In this document: positions 3,082-48,019 of the stretch, one piece after another
Layout: each line of letters opens with the position of its first letter
Position numbering within the stretch: position 1 is the first letter of the stretch
IMG/VR virus record: IMGVR_UViG_3300043353_000046
Location: 1 to 53,938 of that record
Strand: one strand, 5' to 3'
Origin: a virus
Taxonomy: Duplodnaviria; Caudoviricetes
DNA: 53,938 nt
Notes under the pieces: generated by a model
Seen by the model: only the letters and a program-made list of their open reading frames with translations
The model's database searches: none
Told to the model about the DNA's origin: nothing
Made by a program: the position numbers and the translations under genes

Positions 3082-3155
3082 CCCCTCGGACTGGAGTCGA
3101 ACCAGTATCTTCGGTCGTTGTCGAGCGGGGCTCTACCGCATTGAGCTACCGAGGG
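3082..3155 (-). ncRNA. tRNA-like RNA with intact acceptor, D and T arms but non-canonical anticodon arm; no encoded CCA
   Basis: CCCTCGG/CCGAGGG acceptor; T8A9; GCTC-AATGCGGTA-GAGC D arm; ACTGG-TTCGACT-CCAGT T arm. Confidence 0.8.
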
Positions 3156-3189: not shown

Positions 3190-3198
3190 TGGTACACT
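3190..3198 (+). promoter_or_regulatory. Extended -10 promoter for the packaging operon
   Basis: TG-G-TACACT upstream of the GGAGGAG RBS of terS. Confidence 0.45.
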
Positions 3199-3225
3199 TA
3201 GTAGGCGGGTGGAGGAGCCCTCACT

Positions 3226-3720
3226 ATGCCCGGAGCACGTCCCAGCAAGTTCACCAAAGACCCAGATTCCCCAGCGACCCCCAAGGACCCCAAGGCTCCC
3301 ACCCGCGTATTCAAGCGCATGGGTCCGGTCAGCGAGGTCGAGGTGGGGTTCATCCGCCAGTTCCTGCAGGACCAGCCGAGGGAGATTACGCCGGCCCAGA
3401 CGACCGCACTCTCGAAAGTGATGCGTCGCTCGAAGGAGGTCGTGAAGGACATCATCGAGCAAGCCCGAGAGGAATTTCAGGGCTCAGCGCTCGACTACGT
3501 CCGCATCCACAAGGAGTCGACCATCTCCGCCTTCGAACGCGGGGACAACGAGGTCGCTATCAAGAGTGCCCAATGGGCTATCGCGAATATGAGCCAAGAG
3601 GGGACTCGGGTGGTCGAGAAGGTGGCTGCTGAAGGTGGCGGCGGAGTCAAAATCATGATTGGTGTCCAGATGGGTGGGATTGATAAGCCCAAGGGACCCG
3701 TAGTCACGGAAATCAAGTAA
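3226..3720 (+). CDS. terS: Terminase small subunit (putative)
   Basis: Directly upstream of and overlapping terL; helical body with beta-strand C-terminal tail. Confidence 0.6.
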   Translation: MPGARPSKFTKDPDSPATPKDPKAPTRVFKRMGPVSEVEVGFIRQFLQDQPREITPAQTTALSKVMRRSKEVVKDIIEQAREEFQGSALDYVRIHKESTISAFERGDNEVAIKSAQWAIANMSQEGTRVVEKVAAEGGGGVKIMIGVQMGGIDKPKGPVVTEIK

Positions 3721-5543
3721 TGCCGTTCCAGAAGGGGCATAAACTCTCTCCCAAGAGACGTAAACCTCTCGACCCCCCAGTCCTCCCACCGGAACCTGCC
3801 ATAGAGGCGGGGGCGGTGGTCCTCCCACAGGGGGTAGTCTTAACTACCCCTGGGAACGGACCCCTCCCCCCTGGCACATCAAATCAGTCAAATCATTCAG
3901 CAAATAGTGCTGAAAATGGGTCTGAGGGGGTATCAGAAAATTCAGGAGGGGTCCCCCTGACAGAATTGCCCTTGGTTGCACAGAACGGCTTCCATCCGTG
4001 CAGCAAATGTACGAAGCGGAGAGCCAAAGCCGGTCTGCCACCGAACATTTGCTATGACTGCGACCTCTGTAGTGAGTGTTTTGCGGTCTCAGTCGTAGTT
4101 ACCAGCGAGGACGGCAAGCGCCGGGCGCCCTATACGCCCCAGCCGCACCAAATAGCGGCCCACGCGTGTGACGCACCCAACCTGCTCTGTCTGGGCACAC
4201 GGGGTACCGGCAAATCAAAGTGGCTGCGGTGGGACGCCATCATCCGCTGCATGATGATTCCCAACTTCCGGGCGCTCATCATCCGCAGGACCATGCCCGA
4301 GCTGCGGAAGTCCCACCTCTCGATGATTGAGTTCGAGATGAAGCAGCTGGGCGGGACCTTCCTGAAGACGACCTTCCAGGCTGTGTTTCCGAATGGCAGC
4401 ACCATCACCTTCGCGCACTGTGAGACCGAAGCGGACATTCTGAACTTCCTGTCGAGCGAGTACGGGTTCATCGGCTTTGACGAGCTGTCGACGTTCACGC
4501 TGAATCAGTTCCTGCAGATAAGTGCCGCAGCCCGAGCGCCAGAGGGTGAGGGCTATGACGCGGTCGTGCGCTGCGGGTCAAATCCGCTGGGTATTGGCTC
4601 GCTGTGGATGAAAGCGTGGTTCGTCGACCATCAGGTGAGGTTCGAGGACTACCCGGACTACCTGCCTGATGAGTTCGTCATGCAGTTCAGCACACTCGAC
4701 GACAACGAGTATCTGGACAAGAAGAAGTACGAGAGCCGGCTGAAGAATCTCCCCGACCATGTGCGGCGGGCGTGGTTGAAAGGCGAGTTCGTCTCTGAGG
4801 GCACGTACTTCGAGGACTTCTTCCCGACCATGCTGGTGGGTGAGACTGACGAAGAGGAAGTTGAACTCCCGTGGCATGTCATCGACGACGTCCCCCGCTG
4901 GCAGGGGATGCCTATTTTCGAACTGAGCTGGCTGTCCATCTACCGCGCCATCGACTGGGGCTACAGCCCAGACCCAGCGGTCTGCTTGTGGATTGCGGTG
5001 CTGCCGAACAAGTCAGCCATCGTGTTCAAGGAGATGACCTGGAAGAAGACGCTCGCAGAGGTGGTCGCCCGAGACATCAAGAAAGCCAGCGAGGGCATGC
5101 GGATTGTCGAGACCTTCGCGGACAAAACCATGTTCATCGAGACGGGGGCGGCGCAATACACGATTGCCGACAAGTTCGAGTCGAATGGGGTGCCACTGAC
5201 GCCCATGCTCAATGACCGCGAGATGTTTGGATATTCCATCAACGAGTTCCTGACTGAGAAGGTCGACTGGGGCATGGAGGACAAGCATATCTATCGACCG
5301 AAGCTCCAGATTGTGAAGGCTGAGGGCAAGACCCGCTATGGGTGCAAGGAACTCCTCCGCACCCTCCCGCACCAACAGCGTGACAAGCTGAACCCGGCGA
5401 AACTCGCAGACGGTGAGGACCACTGGACGGTGGCGCTCGCCTACTTCTGCATGGGTATGGCGCCCGCGAGCAAACCATCCGCTGAGACCGAAGTGAAGCC
5501 GTGGATGCGACCGAAGCAGCGACGACGGAACCTCGCAGCATAA
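3720..5543 (+). CDS. terL: Terminase large subunit
   Basis: PQPHQ, Walker A GTRGTGKS, Walker B IGFDEL, GSNP coupling motif, RNaseH AIDWG. Confidence 0.92.
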   Translation: MPFQKGHKLSPKRRKPLDPPVLPPEPAIEAGAVVLPQGVVLTTPGNGPLPPGTSNQSNHSANSAENGSEGVSENSGGVPLTELPLVAQNGFHPCSKCTKRRAKAGLPPNICYDCDLCSECFAVSVVVTSEDGKRRAPYTPQPHQIAAHACDAPNLLCLGTRGTGKSKWLRWDAIIRCMMIPNFRALIIRRTMPELRKSHLSMIEFEMKQLGGTFLKTTFQAVFPNGSTITFAHCETEADILNFLSSEYGFIGFDELSTFTLNQFLQISAAARAPEGEGYDAVVRCGSNPLGIGSLWMKAWFVDHQVRFEDYPDYLPDEFVMQFSTLDDNEYLDKKKYESRLKNLPDHVRRAWLKGEFVSEGTYFEDFFPTMLVGETDEEEVELPWHVIDDVPRWQGMPIFELSWLSIYRAIDWGYSPDPAVCLWIAVLPNKSAIVFKEMTWKKTLAEVVARDIKKASEGMRIVETFADKTMFIETGAAQYTIADKFESNGVPLTPMLNDREMFGYSINEFLTEKVDWGMEDKHIYRPKLQIVKAEGKTRYGCKELLRTLPHQQRDKLNPAKLADGEDHWTVALAYFCMGMAPASKPSAETEVKPWMRPKQRRRNLAA

Positions 5544-14396: not shown

Positions 14397-14666
14397 ATGC
14401 CTCTCATGCAAGGGTCGAGTAGCGGGACAGTGGGCGAGAACGTGAAAACGCTCATGCGTGAGGGGCGTCCGCAAGACCAGTCTGTGGCGATTGCGCTCAA
14501 GACGGCAGGCAAGAGTAAGCCGGGGATGAAGAAGAAGCCGCTGGCGCTCAAGCGAGTGCCGAAGGTCAAGCTGGCGCCCGCTGCCGCGCCTCAGCTCCGA
14601 GATGCAGCACAGATGAACGCGGCCTCACCGCTGGTGAAGACGCTGATGTCGCGGAAGGATGTGTAG
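14397..14666 (+). CDS. Small basic phage protein (MPL...ENxxxL...QxVAIAL type)
   Basis: AAGGAG RBS; recognisable phage small-protein motif. Confidence 0.7.
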   Translation: MPLMQGSSSGTVGENVKTLMREGRPQDQSVAIALKTAGKSKPGMKKKPLALKRVPKVKLAPAAAPQLRDAAQMNAASPLVKTLMSRKDV

Positions 14667-15018
14667 GGTGTTGAAAGGCAACTCGAAAGGCATCATGGGC
14701 GAGAACGTGCGCGAGGCCAAGAAGAAGGGGCTGAGTGAACGGGACGCGGTGCTCGTGAGCATGAAGAACAGCAAGAAGGACAAGAAGTCCTCGAACATCG
14801 CGGAGTCGTCGTCGCACGGGGACTATCCGTATAGCTCGCGTCTCGACCTCGACCACGAGATGCTGGAGAAGCTGGGCATCGACAAGATGCCGAAGCACGG
14901 GGCGCCGGTCACCATCCACGCCAAGGGCAAGGTGCATCGGACCTCTGAGGACACGAACAGCGACGGCAAGACGCGGCGGAGCATGACCGTGCAGATGACC
15001 CACATGAAGGTGAAGTGA
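14659..15018 (+). CDS. Putative capsid-associated (staple-like) protein with N-terminal domain resembling the preceding gene
   Basis: GENVREAKKKG...AVLVSM resembles GENVKTLMREG...SVAIAL; C-terminal YPY..RLDLD...LEKLGI. Confidence 0.55.
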   Translation: MCRVLKGNSKGIMGENVREAKKKGLSERDAVLVSMKNSKKDKKSSNIAESSSHGDYPYSSRLDLDHEMLEKLGIDKMPKHGAPVTIHAKGKVHRTSEDTNSDGKTRRSMTVQMTHMKVK

Positions 15019-30078: not shown

Positions 30079-31362
30079 ATGCCGTCCACGCTCAAGTTCG
30101 AGTTCACCCAGGCCACGCTCACGGGCCTTGTGCCCCTGTCGAAGCGGCAGGAATACTTCGATGCCAAGCAGCCAGGGCTCACGGTCATCGTCCACCCGAG
30201 CGGCAAGAAGACGTTCAGCCACTACTACCGGGTGAAGGGGGCTAAGGCGCCTACCCGGCATATCCTCGGCTACTTTGGGCCTGGGGGCTGTGGACTCTCA
30301 GAAGCCCGCCAGCGCGTCCGGGACGGGGCGGCCCTAGTCAGGGCAGGGCAGGACCCTCGGAAGCCCCAGGGCGAGGCAGTGGACCCGACCGGCAGGCGGT
30401 TCAAGGACCTCACAGCGCTCTATCTGAAACTTCATGCGCTCCCCAAGAAGAAGCGCCCCAGCGAGGACATCAGGATTGTCGACAAGGAGCTGCTGCCGCT
30501 GTGGGGCGATAGGCTCGCCGGCAGCATCACCAGAAGGGATACCGCTCAACTCCTCGCCGGGGTCGCCACCAGGGGGACCCGCATGTCTGATGTGGTCCGT
30601 GCTCTTATCAGTAAAATCTTCAACTTCGGCATCGCCCAGGGCTGGGACGAGATTACCAGCAACCCGGTGATTGGAACCGACACTCGCCATGTCGGCAGTG
30701 GCCGAAAGGTCTATCCGACGATGGAAGAGTTCAAACGCCTGTGGGAGGTCTGGGACGCCTGGATTGAGGAAGGCCGGTCGATGTTGGGGTGGCAGTTTCA
30801 GCTGCGAGCGCTCACCGCCCAGCGAGGCGCGGAGGTCCTGCAGATGCAGTGGTCCACGCTGTCGGGGGACCATTGGGTGAAGCCGTTTGAGATTCGGAAG
30901 CGCCGGCTGACGAGCCCCCACCACGACCCCTACCTGATTGTGCTCAGTCCGATGGCGTTGGAGATTCTGGGGAAGATTCGTGCCCTCGGGCAACCCAGCG
31001 ATTGGGTGTTCCCCGCCCGAGCGAGAGCGGGACAGGACCCGAAAGCCACTCTCAACTTCTTCGCGGCCGAGACCGAGGAGCTGTGTGCGCGAGCGAAGGT
31101 GACGGACTTCAGCCCGCATCGGCTGAGGCATTGGGCTTCGACGGCAGCCAATGCAGCGGGTTGCAACCCCGATTGGGTAGAGCGCTACATCGACCACGAG
31201 ATTGGCGGAGTCGCGGGTATCTACAACCTCTATCAGTATGAGGTGGAGAAGCGAACGGTGGCGTATGCGATTGAGAACAAGGTCAGGGAGGCGCTGGGGC
31301 GGGAGGCGATTGAGATGCCGGCTAGTAAACTTCTACCACCAGTCGGCGCGACATCCGCTTGA
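30079..31362 (+). CDS. int: Tyrosine integrase with N-terminal arm-binding domain
   Basis: D...PGL..IV.PSGKKTF; TAQRGAEV (R), PHRLRH, IDH, GIYN (Y). Confidence 0.95.
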   Translation: MPSTLKFEFTQATLTGLVPLSKRQEYFDAKQPGLTVIVHPSGKKTFSHYYRVKGAKAPTRHILGYFGPGGCGLSEARQRVRDGAALVRAGQDPRKPQGEAVDPTGRRFKDLTALYLKLHALPKKKRPSEDIRIVDKELLPLWGDRLAGSITRRDTAQLLAGVATRGTRMSDVVRALISKIFNFGIAQGWDEITSNPVIGTDTRHVGSGRKVYPTMEEFKRLWEVWDAWIEEGRSMLGWQFQLRALTAQRGAEVLQMQWSTLSGDHWVKPFEIRKRRLTSPHHDPYLIVLSPMALEILGKIRALGQPSDWVFPARARAGQDPKATLNFFAAETEELCARAKVTDFSPHRLRHWASTAANAAGCNPDWVERYIDHEIGGVAGIYNLYQYEVEKRTVAYAIENKVREALGREAIEMPASKLLPPVGATSA

Positions 31363-37849: not shown

Positions 37850-38629
37850 TCAAATCCAATCGGACTCGTCAGAGTCTGGAAACATCATCTGCGCCAGCGA
37901 AGAGAAGGTCGCCATCTCACCCGAGAAGGTCTGGTCCTGAATGTCGCGTCCGCCCGGCCCCCGGCTCTTGCCCACGGTAATCGCCATCTGACCGTTGACC
38001 CTGGTGTGCTCGATGGTGGTGTGGACGAGCGCGTCGATGCCGTCCATGCCGTCCACAATGCGGGCGCCGGTCTGGGTCGCAGCTTTCGCACCAGTCTTGT
38101 TGTTGACCTTCTGGCCCCATTCGTTCTTCATGCCCTGGATGAGACCGAAGTTGACGTCGCTGGCCTTCGCCATCGAGATGAGCCGGCGAATCTTGCCCTT
38201 CAGCTTGTCCCAGTCCTTGGGCGGGGCAGCGGCGAACGCATCGTCAGTCCCAAACTCCGCAAAGAAAAACAGCTTGAACACGTCGGTCTCGCGGTCCCAG
38301 ATAATCGTGCGGGCGTGCGAGATGGCGACCTCGAAGTCCGTGACGAACTTGTCGCGAGCTTCAACCGCTTTGGCGTGCGTGTAGTCCTCGCCCACGCCTT
38401 GGCCCAGGTCATACTCCGCGATATACACTTCCTTGTCGGCAGCGTAGGTCTCGACCACGCCTTCGAGTCCCTGGTCGAGGGTCTGGATGACGATTGGCGC
38501 GGGGGCTCCTAGCCAGAAGGATGTCTTGCCGGTACCCACCTCACCGAATGACGCAGCGATGATGCGTGGCTTGATGTCGGTCGTGGCCTTCGTGTATCGC
38601 GAGAACGGGTTGTTCGCAGTCTTCGCCAT
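37850..38629 (-). CDS. AAA/RecA-fold ATPase (Sak4-like recombinase candidate)
   Basis: Walker A GEVGTGKT, Walker B IIWD, KSR; adjacent to nuclease and SSB. Confidence 0.7.
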   Translation of the reverse strand: MAKTANNPFSRYTKATTDIKPRIIAASFGEVGTGKTSFWLGAPAPIVIQTLDQGLEGVVETYAADKEVYIAEYDLGQGVGEDYTHAKAVEARDKFVTDFEVAISHARTIIWDRETDVFKLFFFAEFGTDDAFAAAPPKDWDKLKGKIRRLISMAKASDVNFGLIQGMKNEWGQKVNNKTGAKAATQTGARIVDGMDGIDALVHTTIEHTRVNGQMAITVGKSRGPGGRDIQDQTFSGEMATFSSLAQMMFPDSDESDWI

Positions 38630-39247
38630 CTAGAGCATCCTCTTCTGTTTTGCGTAGCTGATTAGGGTCTGCCAGTTCTCAGCGAGTTCGCGGGAGGTAA
38701 ATGTGATGTCCCATGCCATCAGTGACGGGCCGAACTGGTCTTTGAAGCTGCCAGCGCCGTTCACGAAGCAGGCGTACAAGCGTGCATACGGTGTCTCCAG
38801 ACAGTGGCAATAGGCCATCATCTGGGTGAGATATTTGTCGGCCTTGGGTGGGAACCCATTGGCCTGTTCGCGGGGAAACCCCTTGCTGCTCATCCAGGTG
38901 AGCTTGATTTCTCCAACGCGTGTGGCGCCGTTGAAGATAACGAGGTCGGGGTTGTAGATGATGCCGTATTCGGGTTCGGTGAGTTCGTCGGGACGTCCAG
39001 ACCCTTCGGTCAGCCGGTCCCGCAGCGCCTTCTCCAACATCTCCTCGAACGCCATACCGATGCCCATGAAGCCGGCTTTGTTCTCCGCCTCTTCGGGCGT
39101 GCCAGTGACCGGCCGGTCATAGCGCTTCGGTTCGAGTTCGCGGTAGAGTGCCCCATAGATGTCGCTCATGTGCAGCCCCACACCCCGGACCACCCCAGGG
39201 GCGTGCTGCGTCATGTTGAGGTCGAAGGGGGTCGGGGTGACGAGCAT
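38630..39247 (-). CDS. PD-(D/E)XK exonuclease-like protein
   Basis: H.SDI, G.AFE, NPD...GEIKLT, Q...Y. Confidence 0.75.
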   Translation of the reverse strand: MLVTPTPFDLNMTQHAPGVVRGVGLHMSDIYGALYRELEPKRYDRPVTGTPEEAENKAGFMGIGMAFEEMLEKALRDRLTEGSGRPDELTEPEYGIIYNPDLVIFNGATRVGEIKLTWMSSKGFPREQANGFPPKADKYLTQMMAYCHCLETPYARLYACFVNGAGSFKDQFGPSLMAWDITFTSRELAENWQTLISYAKQKRML

Positions 39248-39909: not shown

Positions 39910-40743
39910 CTACTCGCTGTCTTCCTCTTCCGCGATGGCGATGATGCCCTTCTTCGCGTTGAAGGTCCAACCCGCTTCCGTCGCCAGGAACTCGTCGGAG
40001 GTCGCCAGGATGCGAATCTCCTCACGGTTCTCGTGCTTCAGCAGCTTCTGCGTGACCTTCATGGCCAGCTTCGACTTCGCCACCTGACCGTCGTTGGCCG
40101 CGAGGACCGCGAGCACGACGTCTGTGGCTTCCTGGGTGAAGTCCGGTTCCGCCGACTTCTTGGCCTTGCCAGCGGCAGGCTTCGCGGCCGACTTTCCGGC
40201 AGCCGGCTTCGCAGCCTTGCCCGGCAGGTCGTACACGTTGGTGATGACAAGGTCCTGACGGTTGAACGTCTTGCCGTCCTTGCCCACGCGCTTGCCGAGC
40301 TTCTTGGTCAGCTCGTCGTTCGTCTTCTGCTCGAAGCGAACCCGCGTGCCGATGATGGCCTCGAAGTTGATTTCGTCCTCGGGCAGGTTCTCCTCCGGGA
40401 AGCCCGCCGCGCAGAGGCTGGCGATGAGGGTCGTGAATGCGACTCCCGCGCCCAGCTCCCGACCGTCTTCGTTCGGGGTCAACGTCAGCCCATCCTCGCT
40501 GATGGTGAAGTCGTCGAAGCCGCCCACGAACAGGGTCGTGAAGACAGTCTCTTCCGCGCCGTCGACCTTCACGCCGAGCAGGCAGTTGATGGCGTGGAAG
40601 CGGACCTTGCCCGTCTTCGGGTCTTTGGTCGCCTTGTACGCCTCACCGTTGAACTCGTCGGTGAACTCGTAGCTGACGATGACGCCGTCGACACCGTTGA
40701 GAAAACCGCCGCCCTTTTTGAAGCTTGAGGGACGCGCACCCAT
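39910..40743 (-). CDS. Single-stranded DNA-binding protein (putative)
   Basis: OB-like N-terminus, AAKPAAGK linker, acidic tail EEEDSE; highly biased codons; context. Confidence 0.6.
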   Translation of the reverse strand: MGARPSSFKKGGGFLNGVDGVIVSYEFTDEFNGEAYKATKDPKTGKVRFHAINCLLGVKVDGAEETVFTTLFVGGFDDFTISEDGLTLTPNEDGRELGAGVAFTTLIASLCAAGFPEENLPEDEINFEAIIGTRVRFEQKTNDELTKKLGKRVGKDGKTFNRQDLVITNVYDLPGKAAKPAAGKSAAKPAAGKAKKSAEPDFTQEATDVVLAVLAANDGQVAKSKLAMKVTQKLLKHENREEIRILATSDEFLATEAGWTFNAKKGIIAIAEEEDSE

Positions 40744-41067
40744 TTACACACTCTCCTGGTTGGTGGACGCTGCAGCGTCCGTTGACTGAACTGACTCGGT
40801 GACGAGACCGACGACCGGGGCGCTGGTCGCTTCAATCTCGACGAACTGGCTGGGCTGCTCGTTGATGGCAATGGCGGCATTGGCCATCTGGCAGGCGCGC
40901 TGAATGTCGGTGAACGCGAGGGACTGTTCACGCGAGGGCGGGGTGTTGTCACGGACCACCGTGGCGAAGGCGAGGGCCGCGTCACGGATGGTGACGTAGC
41001 GGGCCGCCTGCGTGCCGAAGGGCGGGTGGTAGGTGAAGATACGTTCCAGACTCGGATTCTTTGCCAC
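40744..41067 (-). CDS. Acb2/Tad1-like hairpin protein
   Basis: FTYHPP...Y..IR......P.SREQSLA.T.IQ.A..MANAAIA.NE. Confidence 0.65.
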   Translation of the reverse strand: MAKNPSLERIFTYHPPFGTQAARYVTIRDAALAFATVVRDNTPPSREQSLAFTDIQRACQMANAAIAINEQPSQFVEIEATSAPVVGLVTESVQSTDAAASTNQESV

Positions 41068-41218
41068 TGTAACCTTTCGAGTAGTGAGTTGCGGGTACCC
41101 AGTGCGACTGCAGTAGTGATGCCAGATGGACCGAACCCCATAGGGTGTGCTCATGAACACGACACGCGCACCCTGTGGTAGGAGGGGAGTCATCGGACCC
41201 CCTCTCCCCAGCCCTCCT

Positions 41219-41863
41219 TCATGCTGTCCTCCTCTGTGGAATGGCTGTACCCATATGACCCCACTGAGCCGCCATCGCTCGGGCTATGCCTAGGAACGTG
41301 CGGCTGCGCTCGTGTGCGCGCTGGGGGCCAGGGGAGGCCAGAAACACCGACTGCTTGCGCAGGTGCTTGGGAATGAGCTTCGTGGGCACGAGCGGGGGCA
41401 ACCCCTTCAGCCACAGACAGGTCGCCTTCTGCTCGGCGTCCCCGAACTGATACGGTTGGATAATCTGTGTGTACTTGCGCCCAATCGCCGCGATGGCATA
41501 GCGATGAGGGATCGGGTTCTCGACCGCTATGAGCGGGATATGGTCGCAGTCCAGGTGCATCTTCAGGAACTTGGCGCCCTCACGCATGGCCGCCTGACGC
41601 TTCTTCCCGTACAGCACGCCCGGTGAGGGGTTGGCCGGCGTCCGATGCAGATGCTGCACCCCTGAGTTCGCCAGATATGTGCAGTCCGGGTGGGCGATGA
41701 GCAGATCCCAGTCGTCGTAGAGGATGTCGCGGATATCCCCTCGGTAGTGCTGGCCGGGAATCTCCGTGTCCCACTTCCAGTCACACGACCACGCGTCGTG
41801 CCCGAGTTTGCGGAACTCCTCACGGATGCGACCAGAGAACTCCTCGGCAATCAGCACCCTCAC
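41219..41863 (-). CDS. C5-cytosine methyltransferase-like protein
   Basis: RVLIAEEFSG, AWSCD, IAHPDCTYL, ENP, K.TCLW, RS.TF.GIA.AMA.QW. Confidence 0.8.
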   Translation of the reverse strand: MRVLIAEEFSGRIREEFRKLGHDAWSCDWKWDTEIPGQHYRGDIRDILYDDWDLLIAHPDCTYLANSGVQHLHRTPANPSPGVLYGKKRQAAMREGAKFLKMHLDCDHIPLIAVENPIPHRYAIAAIGRKYTQIIQPYQFGDAEQKATCLWLKGLPPLVPTKLIPKHLRKQSVFLASPGPQRAHERSRTFLGIARAMAAQWGHMGTAIPQRRTA

Positions 41864-43488
41864 TGGACGCGCCTTTGTAACGACGGTGTACCCCTGACGA
41901 TGCCGAGATAGGAGATGGCGCGGGTGGTCGCCACATATTCTAGGTTCTGTTCCTCCTGATTGACTCCCCGCCGATACAGCGAGTCCCACAGCAAGTAGAC
42001 CTTCTGCGCTTCCAGCCCCTTGGCCTTGTGGATGGAGCTGCAGACCACGTGGGTGGCATCAGGGTCGTCGGTGAAGAGGTGGTCGCAGTTGGCCATGACC
42101 TGCCGCATCGTGTCGGCATCTTCCATCAGCGCCCGCAGCATGTCAGCCTGGTCGCGGGTCTGATCGACTAGCTGCAGCTCGCCAAAGGAGGCATAGCGAG
42201 TGGTCATTTTGCGTTCCCAGGCGTCGATGGCGTTGAGAGCGTCCGTTACCGGCGTCCACGACTCCACCTTGCAACGCTTCAGGATGCTCAGGATGCCGGC
42301 GCCGATGTCCCGGCCTGCCATCCGTGCCCGCACCCCATTACGCAGCAGACGCAGCGTGAGGCTGACCAGCGGGGCATTCAGGCGCGAGAGGACGAAGTCG
42401 CCGGGTTTGACCAGTTGGAGCAGGTCCCCGTCCTCGACATCCTCTACGATGCCCACGGGGTTGGCTGGACCGGCCTCGAAGTCTGGCACCAGCAGGCGCG
42501 CACGCTCGACGATGGACTGGCCACAGCGGTAGGTGGTGGTCAGGGGCAGCTCCAGCGCATTGAGTTCCGTCTTCAGCCGGTCGAGCGATCCCGTGTCCGC
42601 GCCCCTGAACGCATAGATGGCCTGGCGGTCGTCCCCGACGAAGCAGAGGCGGCCGTCACACACGCGCTGGACAATCTCCAGCTGCGCCTTCGTCATGTCC
42701 TGCGCTTCATCCACCACCACGAGCTGGTAGTCCTTGGTCAGCAGGTCCCACGCGAGCGGCAGATAGATCATGTCCGCGAAGTCGATGCCCACTTCGTAGC
42801 GGGGCGGGTTCTCCTTCGCATACGCCATTGCCTCACTGGCCCACTTCACGATGTGGTCGACGGTGAACTTGGGCGCCCAGCCCTCCGAGGGTTCGAGATT
42901 AAAGAACAGCGCCAGCTTCAGCAGGGCATCGGTGGAGTAGCCGCCCTCGACGGTCGGGCACATCTCGCGCCCTTTCGTGTGCAGCAGACTCACCAGCTTC
43001 TTCATCTGGTAGGGCGTACCAATGGGCACCACCTTGTCGGTCAGGAAGTCGGCCCGCTTGCTGGTGGGCTTGGCTACCTGCAGGCCGCGCCAGTTCCGCA
43101 TGATGGCGCGCATGCCGATCCCATGCAGAGTCTTCGCTTCCGCCCGCGAGTTGGTGATCTTCTGGTTCAGCGTGTCTGCGATACCCTTGTTGAACGCACA
43201 GACGAGAATGCTTTCCTCGGGCGCTCGATTCACGCCCTCGACGATGGTGGTCGTTTTGCCCGTGCCGGCGCGAGCCCGCACGATGAGATTGGTGCGGTCC
43301 TCGTCCTCACCTATCAGGCAGGGATAGCAGGGCTTTGGGCCATACTCTGTCTCGTACTCAGCCCGGTCACCACAGATGGCACACTTACCCTCGAACCACC
43401 AGAAGATGGCCTGTTGAGCCGTCGACCAGGTGGGCGCTTTCACTTCCTCGACTTCGACCGCTTTGAAACTACTCGGCCGCGCACCCAT
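41860..43488 (-). CDS. UvrD/Rep-like SF1 helicase
   Basis: ARAGTGKT, VDEAQD, GDDRQAIYAFRGA, TYRC, HKAKGLE, YVATTRA. Confidence 0.95.
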   Translation of the reverse strand: MGARPSSFKAVEVEEVKAPTWSTAQQAIFWWFEGKCAICGDRAEYETEYGPKPCYPCLIGEDEDRTNLIVRARAGTGKTTTIVEGVNRAPEESILVCAFNKGIADTLNQKITNSRAEAKTLHGIGMRAIMRNWRGLQVAKPTSKRADFLTDKVVPIGTPYQMKKLVSLLHTKGREMCPTVEGGYSTDALLKLALFFNLEPSEGWAPKFTVDHIVKWASEAMAYAKENPPRYEVGIDFADMIYLPLAWDLLTKDYQLVVVDEAQDMTKAQLEIVQRVCDGRLCFVGDDRQAIYAFRGADTGSLDRLKTELNALELPLTTTYRCGQSIVERARLLVPDFEAGPANPVGIVEDVEDGDLLQLVKPGDFVLSRLNAPLVSLTLRLLRNGVRARMAGRDIGAGILSILKRCKVESWTPVTDALNAIDAWERKMTTRYASFGELQLVDQTRDQADMLRALMEDADTMRQVMANCDHLFTDDPDATHVVCSSIHKAKGLEAQKVYLLWDSLYRRGVNQEEQNLEYVATTRAISYLGIVRGTPSLQRRVQ

Positions 43489-43715
43489 CAGTCTCGCTCC
43501 AGTCGGTCATTGCCCATCGATATAGGCGGGGTAAGGCGGTCAGCCGGGACGAACCCGATCAGCTCCGCGACAATGCGCCGGGCGATATCAACGCTCTCCT
43601 GAGCGATGGCATTCTTCTGTGTGGACGTCAGCCGATTGCGACTGTATTCGCCCACCATCCCTGCTGCAATGTTCCCCGCCATGCGGGCCAGACCCGTGTC
43701 GTAGTTCGGCTTCAT
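43488..43715 (-). CDS. Hypothetical protein
   Basis: ARMAGNIAAG...SV.IAR.IV; coupled to the helicase. Confidence 0.65.
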   Translation of the reverse strand: MKPNYDTGLARMAGNIAAGMVGEYSRNRLTSTQKNAIAQESVDIARRIVAELIGFVPADRLTPPISMGNDRLERD

Positions 43716-43855
43716 CAGCTACATCCCTTCTTCGCAAACCACACGACCACCCCGCAGCGCCGGCAGACCTTGAAACTACAGGCGCCAGCATTCGAGGAGA
43801 GATAGACCCACAGGTGATGACACATCTATCAGTGGACTCTCAGGGAGGGGGATAG

Positions 43856-43877
43856 GGGGGTTATAGTAATAACCCCC
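43856..43877. repeat. Perfect inverted repeat with AT-rich centre (origin/regulatory candidate)
   Basis: GGGGGTTAT-AGTA-ATAACCCCC. Confidence 0.6.
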
Positions 43878-43900
43878 ACCACCCCTGCCCGTGAATAGAG

Positions 43901-44401
43901 TTAGTCTTGGCCGGGGGCGGGGGCCAATTGGCCATCCACGCGCACGAACTTGCGGGCCTTCAGCACCTGCAGATTGCGCTTGATGAAGCGGTCGATCCGC
44001 TGGGCCACTGCACGAGCGTGCGCCTTGGTGCCGGGCGTTGTGTCCGCGCAACTGTCGCCCGCGCCATCATTGAACACGCTGTGATAGATGCCGTCACGGC
44101 CCATGAACTCGAACGCGACATCGGGGCCAAGCAGCTTCTCGACAGCCCCAAAGACCGGCCCCGACATCGACCACTCGCGCCCCTTGGCGAGAACACCGAT
44201 CCATCCGGCGAAGCAGCCAACCGTCCCGCAGGCCGGCTTCTGGCCGCCGAAGTAGGCGTCGGGGTTAGTCGAGTCCTCGACAACGGTCCCCATGTCCACG
44301 CGTCTCGGGTCCGCCAGTACCACTCGTTTGACCGCTTGAATCAACCCCAGTGCGGTCTTGGCCCTCGATACCGGAATGACCTGCAGCTTTCTCGTCCTCA
44401 T
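43901..44401 (-). CDS. Hypothetical protein (CGTVGCFAGW motif family)
   Basis: AGGAG RBS; CGT..C.AGW motif common in phages. Confidence 0.7.
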   Translation of the reverse strand: MRTRKLQVIPVSRAKTALGLIQAVKRVVLADPRRVDMGTVVEDSTNPDAYFGGQKPACGTVGCFAGWIGVLAKGREWSMSGPVFGAVEKLLGPDVAFEFMGRDGIYHSVFNDGAGDSCADTTPGTKAHARAVAQRIDRFIKRNLQVLKARKFVRVDGQLAPAPGQD

Positions 44402-45363
44402 GCTTCTGCTCCTATCACTGACCACTTGTTGGTCTTCTTGTGTTTACTGACGATGTTCATCTTCCTGACCGTCTGATAGACCTTCATGAACTCTTTGGCG
44501 TCGAGGCCCGTGGCATCCACCCAGGTCTGCCAGCTGCAGGGCTGCTGCTGCCGCAGGATGTCCACGACTGCCTCCGCAGCACTCTGGCGCTCGACAGGGG
44601 CATTGCTGCCCTTCATCACACACGAGTCGGTGCCGGGGACCACCAGCTTCTCCAGCTCGATGTTGTCGAAGTGCTCGGCGTCCTTCTGCTTGTCGCACTC
44701 GAAGGCGACCGTCTCCCCATCCCTGGTGATCTTGATCATCGTGTCGACGCCACCACGAAACGCCGTGGCGCCACGTTCCCGACCGCCATCCAGCCGGGTG
44801 TGATGAATCACCAGCACCGTGCAGCCGAAGCGCTTGCGGAGGATGTCGATGCCCGCAATGAACTTGCCCATGTCCTCGGTCTCGTTCTCGTTGCCGTCGA
44901 AGCAGCGGGCCATCGTGTCGACGATGATCAAGCTAGGTTCGCGGCGAACCTCGTCCTCCAGCCGGCCGAGGAGGGTGACGATCTCGTCGCTGTCAGCGGA
45001 CAACGGCACGCTCTCGATGAGCCACGCGATATCCGCATCTTGGGGCTCGATCTGGTGCGTCACCAGCCAGGCCAGCGCCCGCTTGCCCAGACCAGCCCCA
45101 CCCTCAGCCCCGATGTAAACGACAAACCCCTTCTGCGTCTCCTTGCCCTGCCATGAGGTCCCGGTCGCCACCGACATCGCAATATCGATAGCGATGAAGC
45201 TCTTGTAGGTCTCTGGGGGTCCATACATGCCCACCAGCGCCCCCACCGGCATCACGGGTTCGATCAGCCAGGAGGGGGCAGGCATGTTCAGCAGTTCAAG
45301 CGTGTTGTAGAGGCGCAGTGGACCCGGCGCGGTCAGGGTGAACTGGCGCGGACGACTGCCCAC
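44398..45363 (-). CDS. RepA-like (AAA_25) replicative helicase without a primase domain
   Basis: GPPETYKS, YIGAEG, IIVDT, VIHH, RG..A..G..DT, KQKD. Confidence 0.88.
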   Translation of the reverse strand: MGSRPRQFTLTAPGPLRLYNTLELLNMPAPSWLIEPVMPVGALVGMYGPPETYKSFIAIDIAMSVATGTSWQGKETQKGFVVYIGAEGGAGLGKRALAWLVTHQIEPQDADIAWLIESVPLSADSDEIVTLLGRLEDEVRREPSLIIVDTMARCFDGNENETEDMGKFIAGIDILRKRFGCTVLVIHHTRLDGGRERGATAFRGGVDTMIKITRDGETVAFECDKQKDAEHFDNIELEKLVVPGTDSCVMKGSNAPVERQSAAEAVVDILRQQQPCSWQTWVDATGLDAKEFMKVYQTVRKMNIVSKHKKTNKWSVIGAEA

Positions 45364-47467: not shown

Positions 47468-48019
47468 CTAACGGTCTTCTAGCAACGCAGCCGCGTGATA
47501 CATACTCGGCCACTCGACCACCATCATGAATAGCGCGTCCATCTTGTGACTCGCAAGGTAGCGGGCGTGTTCCCGGTACCCATCATGACTGACCAGCATC
47601 GCGACCGTTTCCGCGAACGCTTCTGCCTGTCGGGTGGTCACCCATCCCGGCTGCAAGGTGTGGCCGGCTTCATGCGCAAGGACAGCGAGTCTGGCATTCC
47701 AGCTGAGACCTCCATCAATGATGATGGCGTGCTTCTCCATGTCAGTAACCCCGTAGGCTTCATGCCCGTCGACTTCAAGGCCCCCCGCGTATGTCACCGA
47801 GTAGTTCAGCATCTCCAGCTTCGACTCCAGGGACAGCGCGTCCCAGTAGCGATGGGTGCCGTTGTCACTGCGAACGTGTCCCGGCGACATGAACAGCACC
47901 TCAGCCCCAAGGGTCATCACCCGCCAGGGCGCCATGATGAACACCTGGATGAAGAAGATGAGGGCCAGGAGGGCTCGCACCTTGAACCAGTCAATCTCGA
48001 AGGGCTCCTTAAGCGGCAT
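47468..48019 (-). CDS. Membrane-anchored zincin metallopeptidase (ImmA/IrrE or ArdC-C-like)
   Basis: N-terminal TM; HEAGH; downstream EAFAE. Confidence 0.8.
   Translation of the reverse strand: MPLKEPFEIDWFKVRALLALIFFIQVFIMAPWRVMTLGAEVLFMSPGHVRSDNGTHRYWDALSLESKLEMLNYSVTYAGGLEVDGHEAYGVTDMEKHAIIIDGGLSWNARLAVLAHEAGHTLQPGWVTTRQAEAFAETVAMLVSHDGYREHARYLASHKMDALFMMVVEWPSMYHAAALLEDR

Follow-up and report, generated by a model that had tools for sequence, protein, structure and literature searches.

The window, meaning the whole stretch of DNA analysed here, is a single IMG/VR virus record (IMGVR_UViG_3300043353_000046) of 53,938 bases, rated 91% complete and with a base composition of 60.6% G+C. Four of its proteins begin with variants of one short peptide: a protein designated here as SSB-like (SSB, single-stranded DNA-binding protein), a UvrD-type helicase, an ATPase of the AAA_25 (RepA/DnaB-like) type and a putative small terminase subunit, TerS. 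We judge it an even chance that this peptide, G[AS]RP[ST]x[FY], is an SSB contact arm and that client proteins imitate it as a means of docking on the SSB-like protein; residues 2-8 would then be primarily the N-terminal arm of a large SSB-like family of uncultured phages. The arm co-evolves with an acidic and hydrophobic segment, residues 104-128, of the SSB-like protein. An earlier reading of this DNA made from its letters alone (the sequence-only reading) had described the same tag on the four proteins, and all four starts and peptides were found as it had described them.

In six-frame translation, the window has four matches to G[AS]RP..F. Each of them lies at residues 2-3 of an open reading frame (ORF), and the four ORFs are 164-542 amino acids long. 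In 300 base-composition shuffles the mean number of matches was 0.41 and the maximum 3, with none at an ORF start. The placement of the peptide at ORF starts is not due to chance. All four peptide-bearing starts are the first start codon past the upstream stop, and the three on the minus strand touch or overlap the stop of the preceding gene. The TerS ATG is preceded by a GGAGGAG ribosome-binding site, and the ORF is open from this start in all three DNAs examined. Public gene calls for TerS are divided, as 4 of 9 entries, the window's own included, start at an internal Met (residue 32) and so lose the peptide together with the linker behind it. These calls are a caveat on the TerS start. An internal Ser-Gly-Arg-Pro stretch in the Cas4-like exonuclease of the window, kept in the homologues of L020, L023 and L024 (handles beginning with G or L denote the genomes and loci compared here), is loosely like the peptide; the likeness is probably a coincidence.

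The peptide is conserved at the protein level across extensive change in its codons. Twelve SSB-like genes with the window's residues 2-9 encode them in 12 nucleotide versions, and synonymous variation occurs at every codon position among the fetched loci. Between the window and its relative G001, which are about 78% identical in DNA, the peptides of the SSB-like protein and the AAA_25 ATPase are kept across switches of Ser codon class. Copies of the peptide inside one genome also differ at synonymous sites, including switches of Ser and Arg codon class; the codon differences that the sequence-only reading listed between the SSB-like and UvrD genes, among them a TCA/AGT serine switch, are correct. 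Taken together, these comparisons indicate that selection acts on the peptide as protein and not on copied DNA, in line with the earlier proposal of selection on the peptide rather than recent DNA copying. The segments behind the peptide behave differently. The linker that separates the peptide from the first conserved Trp varies from 11 to 25 residues among 58 UvrD carriers, and the linker of TerS is hypervariable, with in-frame insertions and deletions, while its peptide is constant. Several characteristics of a short linear docking motif are found together: a seven-residue core conserved more than its flanks, a variable segment, unrelated carriers and co-variation.

The SSB-like family is large and comprises 1367, 727 and 259 cluster representatives at E<=1e-3, 1e-10 and 1e-30, respectively, with 321 matches in 90% clusters. 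Its N-terminus is the most conserved stretch of the family; in the homologue alignment A1, R4 is invariant and P5, S6 and F8 are at least 90% conserved. A loose form of the peptide is present in 115 of the 120 matches listed, and the canonical form in 128 of 148 homologues, unchanged between SSB-like proteins that are just 40-50% identical. The SSB-like protein keeps the peptide in G003, G006, L071 and L072 even though it is the sole carrier there. The relaxed pattern was also sought at the starts of 4733 ORFs of at least 60 amino acids from all fetched loci (related records and metagenome loci). The 66 matching starts belong to 33 SSB-like proteins, 10 AAA_25 ATPases, 9 UvrD-type helicases and 3 TerS, along with 11 unassigned ORFs that mostly look wrong-frame; one of the AAA_25 starts is internal and was judged spurious.

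The other carriers possess the peptide less regularly. Among the 120 closest UvrD homologues listed, 62 are canonical, 12 carry a variant and 46 are without the peptide, the last group including truncated entries and 14 proteins without any N-terminal extension. The UvrD homologues in L003 and L004, contigs where no SSB-like gene was found, are without it. The peptide of the AAA_25 ATPase is found also in G001, G002, G004, L064, L065, L067, L069 and L073. The motif recurs, then, in related phages for the SSB-like, UvrD and AAA_25 proteins, and its absence from close relatives, which the sequence-only reading had named as a reason to give up its proposal, is not borne out for these three. In TerS, the peptide is restricted to the narrow clade of the window, represented by 9 database homologues with 77-100% identity; 5 of these 9 entries begin at the peptide, which is conserved in all 5, and more distant TerS homologues are without it. 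The suggestion that the motif couples replication to packaging has lost ground accordingly, TerS being its one packaging carrier, with the peptide confined to a narrow clade in which its DNA is frozen.

Neither the SSB-like nor the Sak4-like protein has a relative in cultured phage records, and species-representative bacterial genomes yielded no relative and no prophage copy. A Pirellulales metagenome-assembled genome (MAG) that matched a degenerate DNA pattern was shown by tblastn to be unrelated, and the match was treated as chance. One UvrD homologue bears the name of a Bryobacteraceae MAG, which is a lead only. The UvrD-type helicase of L074 (6538-8928, plus strand; also in L075) is 797 amino acids long and contains an intein (PF14890) around Walker A, with the N-terminal peptide kept; the length of several database UvrD homologues, about 800 amino acids, suggests the same intein.

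Departures from the canonical peptide are shared between proteins of the same genome. Where the SSB arm is non-canonical, the helicase arm of that genome is altered in the same way (G008, G007, the L080+L074 clade and G005). Pro is lost from both arms in L080, L074, L088, L091 and G005; in G007, Phe is replaced by Leu and Arg-Pro is lost, again in both; and in G008 and L097 both are shortened to the same Leu-rich core. Sister genomes of these lineages keep the canonical form in both proteins. When the SSB-like proteins were placed in a tree with the first 14 residues removed, G008 grouped as sister of the canonical G004 (97/90) and G007 as sister of the canonical L063/L066 (98/90), while L080 and L074 form a clade of their own (100/100) and G005 is located elsewhere. 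The arm changes in the four lineages are, by this tree, separate events. When genome labels were permuted, the mean score for SSB against AAA_25 was 16.3 compared with 13.4 after shuffling (p ~0.004, 17 genomes), and that for SSB against UvrD was 27.0 compared with 23.1 (p ~0.001, 9 genomes). Co-variation of the motif among the N-termini of related phages, the check proposed by the sequence-only reading, has thus been observed, as variants travel together across the proteins of one genome.

A candidate socket for the arm was identified in the SSB-like protein by comparing proteins with canonical and non-canonical arms over the 73 conserved columns outside residues 1-10. Most of these columns stay conserved in both groups. 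The biggest loss of conservation among carriers of non-canonical arms falls on columns 115, 116, 117 and 120, which belong to one loop, GFPE..LPED (clustering P 2.5e-5). A repeat with 145 representatives of 50%-identity clusters placed the top five columns within 115-128. The loop pattern is possessed by 71 of 79 canonical carriers and by 23 of 66 non-canonical ones (Fisher p 2e-12), and it is found once in the window. Mutual information with average product correction (APC), calculated from 278 sequences (177 effective), located 17 of the 20 top partners of residues 2-9 in residues 108-130, a region of 23 of the 263 columns in the test. Alterations of the loop occur in the genomes whose SSB-like protein and helicase both have an altered arm.

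The proposed mechanism can be described as follows. The basic and aromatic arm would bind the acidic and hydrophobic 104-128 segment with its GFPE..LPED loop, most likely on a neighbouring SSB-like subunit. Each of the two helicases, UvrD-type and AAA_25, would bear its own copy of the arm at the end of a flexible linker and use the same socket, as would TerS in this clade. Such docking may either recruit the clients to SSB-coated DNA or let them compete locally with SSB-SSB contacts. From the patterns in the alignments we infer four elements of this scheme, namely that the co-evolution reflects physical contact, that the contact between arm and socket lies between molecules, that the client arms use the SSB socket and that the SSB-like protein binds single-stranded DNA. 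A complex prediction of SSB-like residues 10-277 with UvrD residues 1-40, run as one job without controls, scored 0.16 against a mark of 0.32 and weighs neither way.

Several observations weigh against an SSB contact arm copied by clients. The first concerns the identity of the SSB-like protein, which has no match in Pfam, PHROGs or a sequence profile search of the PDB; the DUF669 model (PF05037) matches nothing in the window even at E<=10. The protein is called SSB-like because its neighbourhood is that described for the DUF669 SSB Gp63 of phage phi47, so that it is gene context which suggests an SSB. In a protein atlas, DUF669 is the nearest named cluster, a weak one with a score of 0.76. 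Secondly, the co-evolution of arm and loop could arise from contact within one molecule, and it would then be silent on the clients. Thirdly, the permutation and column tests ignore relatedness; behind the helicase pairs stand about four independent events, and behind the loop result about ten lineages. Fourthly, the proteins of one genome do not always agree. In G002 the SSB-like protein and the AAA_25 ATPase have the canonical form, but UvrD has a shortened arm and TerS begins without Pro and Phe, and shortened UvrD arms like this one occur in several of the 120 homologues listed. The AAA_25 ATPase has no arm in G003, G006, G010, L071, L072, L093, L101 and probably L062, and most genomes with an armless AAA_25 have a canonical SSB arm. 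Finally, bases -36 to +27 of the TerS start (63 nt, window 3190-3252, plus strand) are identical in the window, G001 and L013, which outside this region are about 78% identical. This identity means that constraint at the nucleotide level is possible there, and the stretch may act as a DNA or RNA element in regulation or packaging.

Among the alternatives to arm mimicry, the strongest is that the peptide docks on a different hub, a possibility that we consider unlikely on balance. The hub might be another protein of the phage, with the Sak4-like ATPase and the exonuclease as examples, or a conserved protein of the host, such as the sliding clamp, SSB, the replicative helicase or a chaperone; the SSB-like protein would be a mere client and the arm-loop signal would be intramolecular. 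All 11 related virus records that were compared have genes for both the Sak4-like ATPase and the exonuclease. The constancy of the peptide across SSB-like proteins that are themselves only 40-50% identical is what a slowly evolving partner predicts, and co-variation within genomes suits any common partner. Against this, no carrier-independent receptor was found, and the sole co-evolution signal found lies in the SSB-like protein, which is also the one constant carrier. The phage polymerase, named as a possible hub by the sequence-only reading, is a poor candidate because no PolA homologue was found in G002 (rated 100% complete, with the peptide on two proteins), G003, G007 or G009. The broader claim of that reading, a short linear motif that docks proteins on one hub, has therefore held in part: the motif features and the co-variation agree with it, but the hubs that it named are unsupported and the co-evolution leads to a segment within the SSB-like protein instead.

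It is improbable that the peptide is a shared degron or N-terminal modification site which times the abundance of replication and packaging proteins, as the sequence-only reading had also proposed. As such a site might, the peptide does occupy the very N-terminus of proteins unrelated to one another, and Met is followed by a small residue every time. Its main carrier is, on the other hand, the abundant, stoichiometric SSB-like protein, and recognition by a host protease or modifying enzyme does not predict co-evolution with an internal loop of that protein; it also leaves unexplained the lineage-specific changes common to proteins of one genome. A related reading, in which the Gly after Met is N-myristoylated, was dropped since the TerS copy has Pro before this Gly and bacteria are not known to possess an N-myristoylation enzyme.

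Little more can be said for a generic DNA-binding arm, which we hold to be a similarly slim prospect. The peptide may resemble an AT-hook, or the Gly-Arg-Pro arm of Hin recombinase; all four carriers act on DNA, and in the SSB-like protein Gly, Arg and Pro are followed by Lys or Arg. Such an arm should co-vary neither genome by genome nor with an acidic loop, and the AT-hook core accounts neither for the conserved aromatic residue nor for the additional residue that separates Gly from Arg. Least probable is a nucleotide-level or translation-initiation feature, or gene conversion of 5' ends, in which the peptide has no function: the DNA identity of the TerS start region in three relatives and the common first 11 nt of two window genes fit this explanation, but all 12 of the SSB-like genes with the same peptide differ in DNA and same-genome copies differ at synonymous sites.

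The coordinates of the carriers, their peptides and the adjoining genes are collected in Table 1. The UvrD-type helicase matches PF00580 with E 3e-22 and 80 bits (cut-off 23), and its matches to PF13538 and PF13361 are also over their cut-offs. The AAA_25 ATPase matches PF13481 with E 1.2e-35 and 123.4 bits (curated cut-off 27) and is probably the replicative helicase. The Sak4-like and Cas4-type exonuclease genes adjoin the SSB-like gene, both with weak matches (E 7e-4 and 4e-5, respectively). TerL is a Terminase_3 protein which the TerS ORF abuts; this ORF has no match in Pfam or PHROGs and is a putative TerS by its position. Just upstream of it, ARAGORN reports a tRNA-Cys with the unusual anticodon ACA (3082-3155, minus strand), which may be spurious.

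Table 1. Positions in the window of the peptide-bearing genes, the peptides, the candidate socket and adjoining genes
Feature	Positions	Strand	Description or basis
SSB-like gene	39910-40743	-	277 aa: N-terminal arm, core, Ala/Lys/Pro-rich linker, C-terminal domain
N-terminal peptide, residues 1-9 of SSB-like protein	40717..40743	-	Homologue alignment A1
Candidate socket, SSB-like residues 104-128 including GFPE..LPED loop	40360..40434	-	Co-evolution with arm
UvrD-type superfamily 1 (SF1) helicase, 542 aa	41860-43488	-	PF00580, PF13538, PF13361; phrog_1967 DNA helicase
N-terminal peptide of UvrD-type helicase	43462..43488	-	ORF start
AAA_25 (RepA/DnaB-like) ATPase, 321 aa	44398-45363	-	PF13481; PHROG primase/helicase families
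N-terminal peptide of AAA_25/RepA-like ATPase	45337..45363	-	GTG start; ATG in relative G001
Putative TerS, 164 aa	3226-3720	+	Directly upstream of TerL (3720-5543)
N-terminal peptide of putative TerS	3226..3255	+	ORF start
Sak4-like AAA_24 ATPase	37850-38629	-	Weak match
Cas4/RecE-like exonuclease	38630-39247	-	Weak match

Other genes of the window encode a family A polymerase, an integrase, two methyltransferases, an HNH endonuclease and an ERCC4-type nuclease. The next gene upstream of the SSB-like one encodes an Acb2/Tad1 hairpin domain (40744-41193, minus strand; PF24729, E 2.3e-12), and its stop codon abuts the start codon of the SSB-like gene. Its product might serve as a sponge for the signals of cyclic-nucleotide defence. 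The integrase is a tyrosine integrase with an arm-binding domain (30079-31362, plus strand), and it suggests, together with a DUF6782-type putative metallopeptidase (47468-48019, minus strand), a temperate lifestyle. The window and G001 are circular permutations of each other, the two ends of the window being adjacent in G001, which fits a circular or terminally redundant genome. Within the structural module, the small adjacent ORFs 14397-14666 and 14659-15018 (plus strand) have similar beginnings and look like tandem paralogues.

Arm mimicry may extend to a principle of recruitment, for which we estimate a probability somewhat short of even. The SSB would polymerise through its arm and a socket in its core; the helicases and, in one clade, TerS would have acquired copies of the arm independently; and with these copies they could insert into or cap SSB filaments, which would couple SSB-coated DNA to unwinding, to recombination and to the initiation of packaging. 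Arm and socket would drift together and so form a code private to each lineage. Among the titles listed by a literature search on an N-terminal peptide common to phage SSB, helicase and terminase there was nothing relevant, and the comparisons presented here suggest that the new element is the clients' bearing a copy of the SSB's own N-terminal arm. If true, this would provide a simple and testable assembly rule for a very common replication-recombination module of uncultured phages. It would also exemplify a docking motif that has arisen several times at N-termini, and it might tie replication intermediates physically to the packaging of DNA. Arm and socket differ from lineage to lineage, and the resulting pairs constitute natural specificity-swap experiments.

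Short docking peptides are known from several replication systems. The beta-clamp pentapeptide is a short motif, sometimes N-terminal, that occurs on many DNA-metabolism proteins and has the consensus Gln, Leu, Ser/Asp, Leu, Phe; the canonical peptide, judged by eye, misses this consensus. In phage T7, the tail of the SSB gp2.5 resembles that of the helicase gp4. The acidic C-terminal tails of gp4 bind basic patches on the polymerase (PMC8472574). The T7 proteins are similar to those described here in that a helicase and an SSB of one phage have similar terminal tails which dock, or here would dock, on one partner surface. They differ in that the T7 tails are C-terminal and acidic and their hub is the DNA polymerase, whereas the present peptides are N-terminal and basic/aromatic and a polymerase is no universal companion. 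The C-terminal tip of bacterial SSB is a short peptide that ends in an aromatic residue, and many genome-maintenance proteins are organised around the SSB through it (PMC9917605). The SSB-like protein of the window ends in an acidic stretch and does not have this tip motif. In this usual form of SSB-centred recruitment the peptide belongs to the SSB and the pockets to the clients; the present data suggest the reverse, with the peptide on the clients and the proposed pocket on the SSB-like protein.

Two phage proteins are precedents for an arm that contacts a neighbouring copy. For Gp63, a DUF669 SSB of Pseudomonas phage phi47, the AlphaFold model has residues 1-20 lying on residues 131-143 of a second copy, and Gp63 pulls down a helicase, a Cas4 exonuclease and the Sak4-like ATPase Gp64 ('Healer') (PMC13687109). 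The same neighbourhood of helicase, Cas4-type exonuclease, SSB and Sak4-like ATPase is found in the window, although its SSB-like protein, as stated above, is without a DUF669 model match at E<=10; the available excerpt of PMC13687109 reports no peptide common to Gp63 and the helicase. In T4 gp32, the basic N-domain (the 'LAST' motif) binds the core of the adjacent gp32 on single-stranded DNA, an established basis of gp32 cooperativity (PMC12893549). The sequences are unrelated, and the clients are held in another way: T4 clients bind the acidic C-terminal domain of gp32 (PMC12893549), while here the N-terminal arm is itself found, as a copy, on the clients. Both systems have a short basic peptide at the extreme N-terminus, in T4 of a phage single-stranded DNA-binding protein and here of a protein that may be one, and in both an acidic receptor is proposed in the core of the neighbouring molecule.

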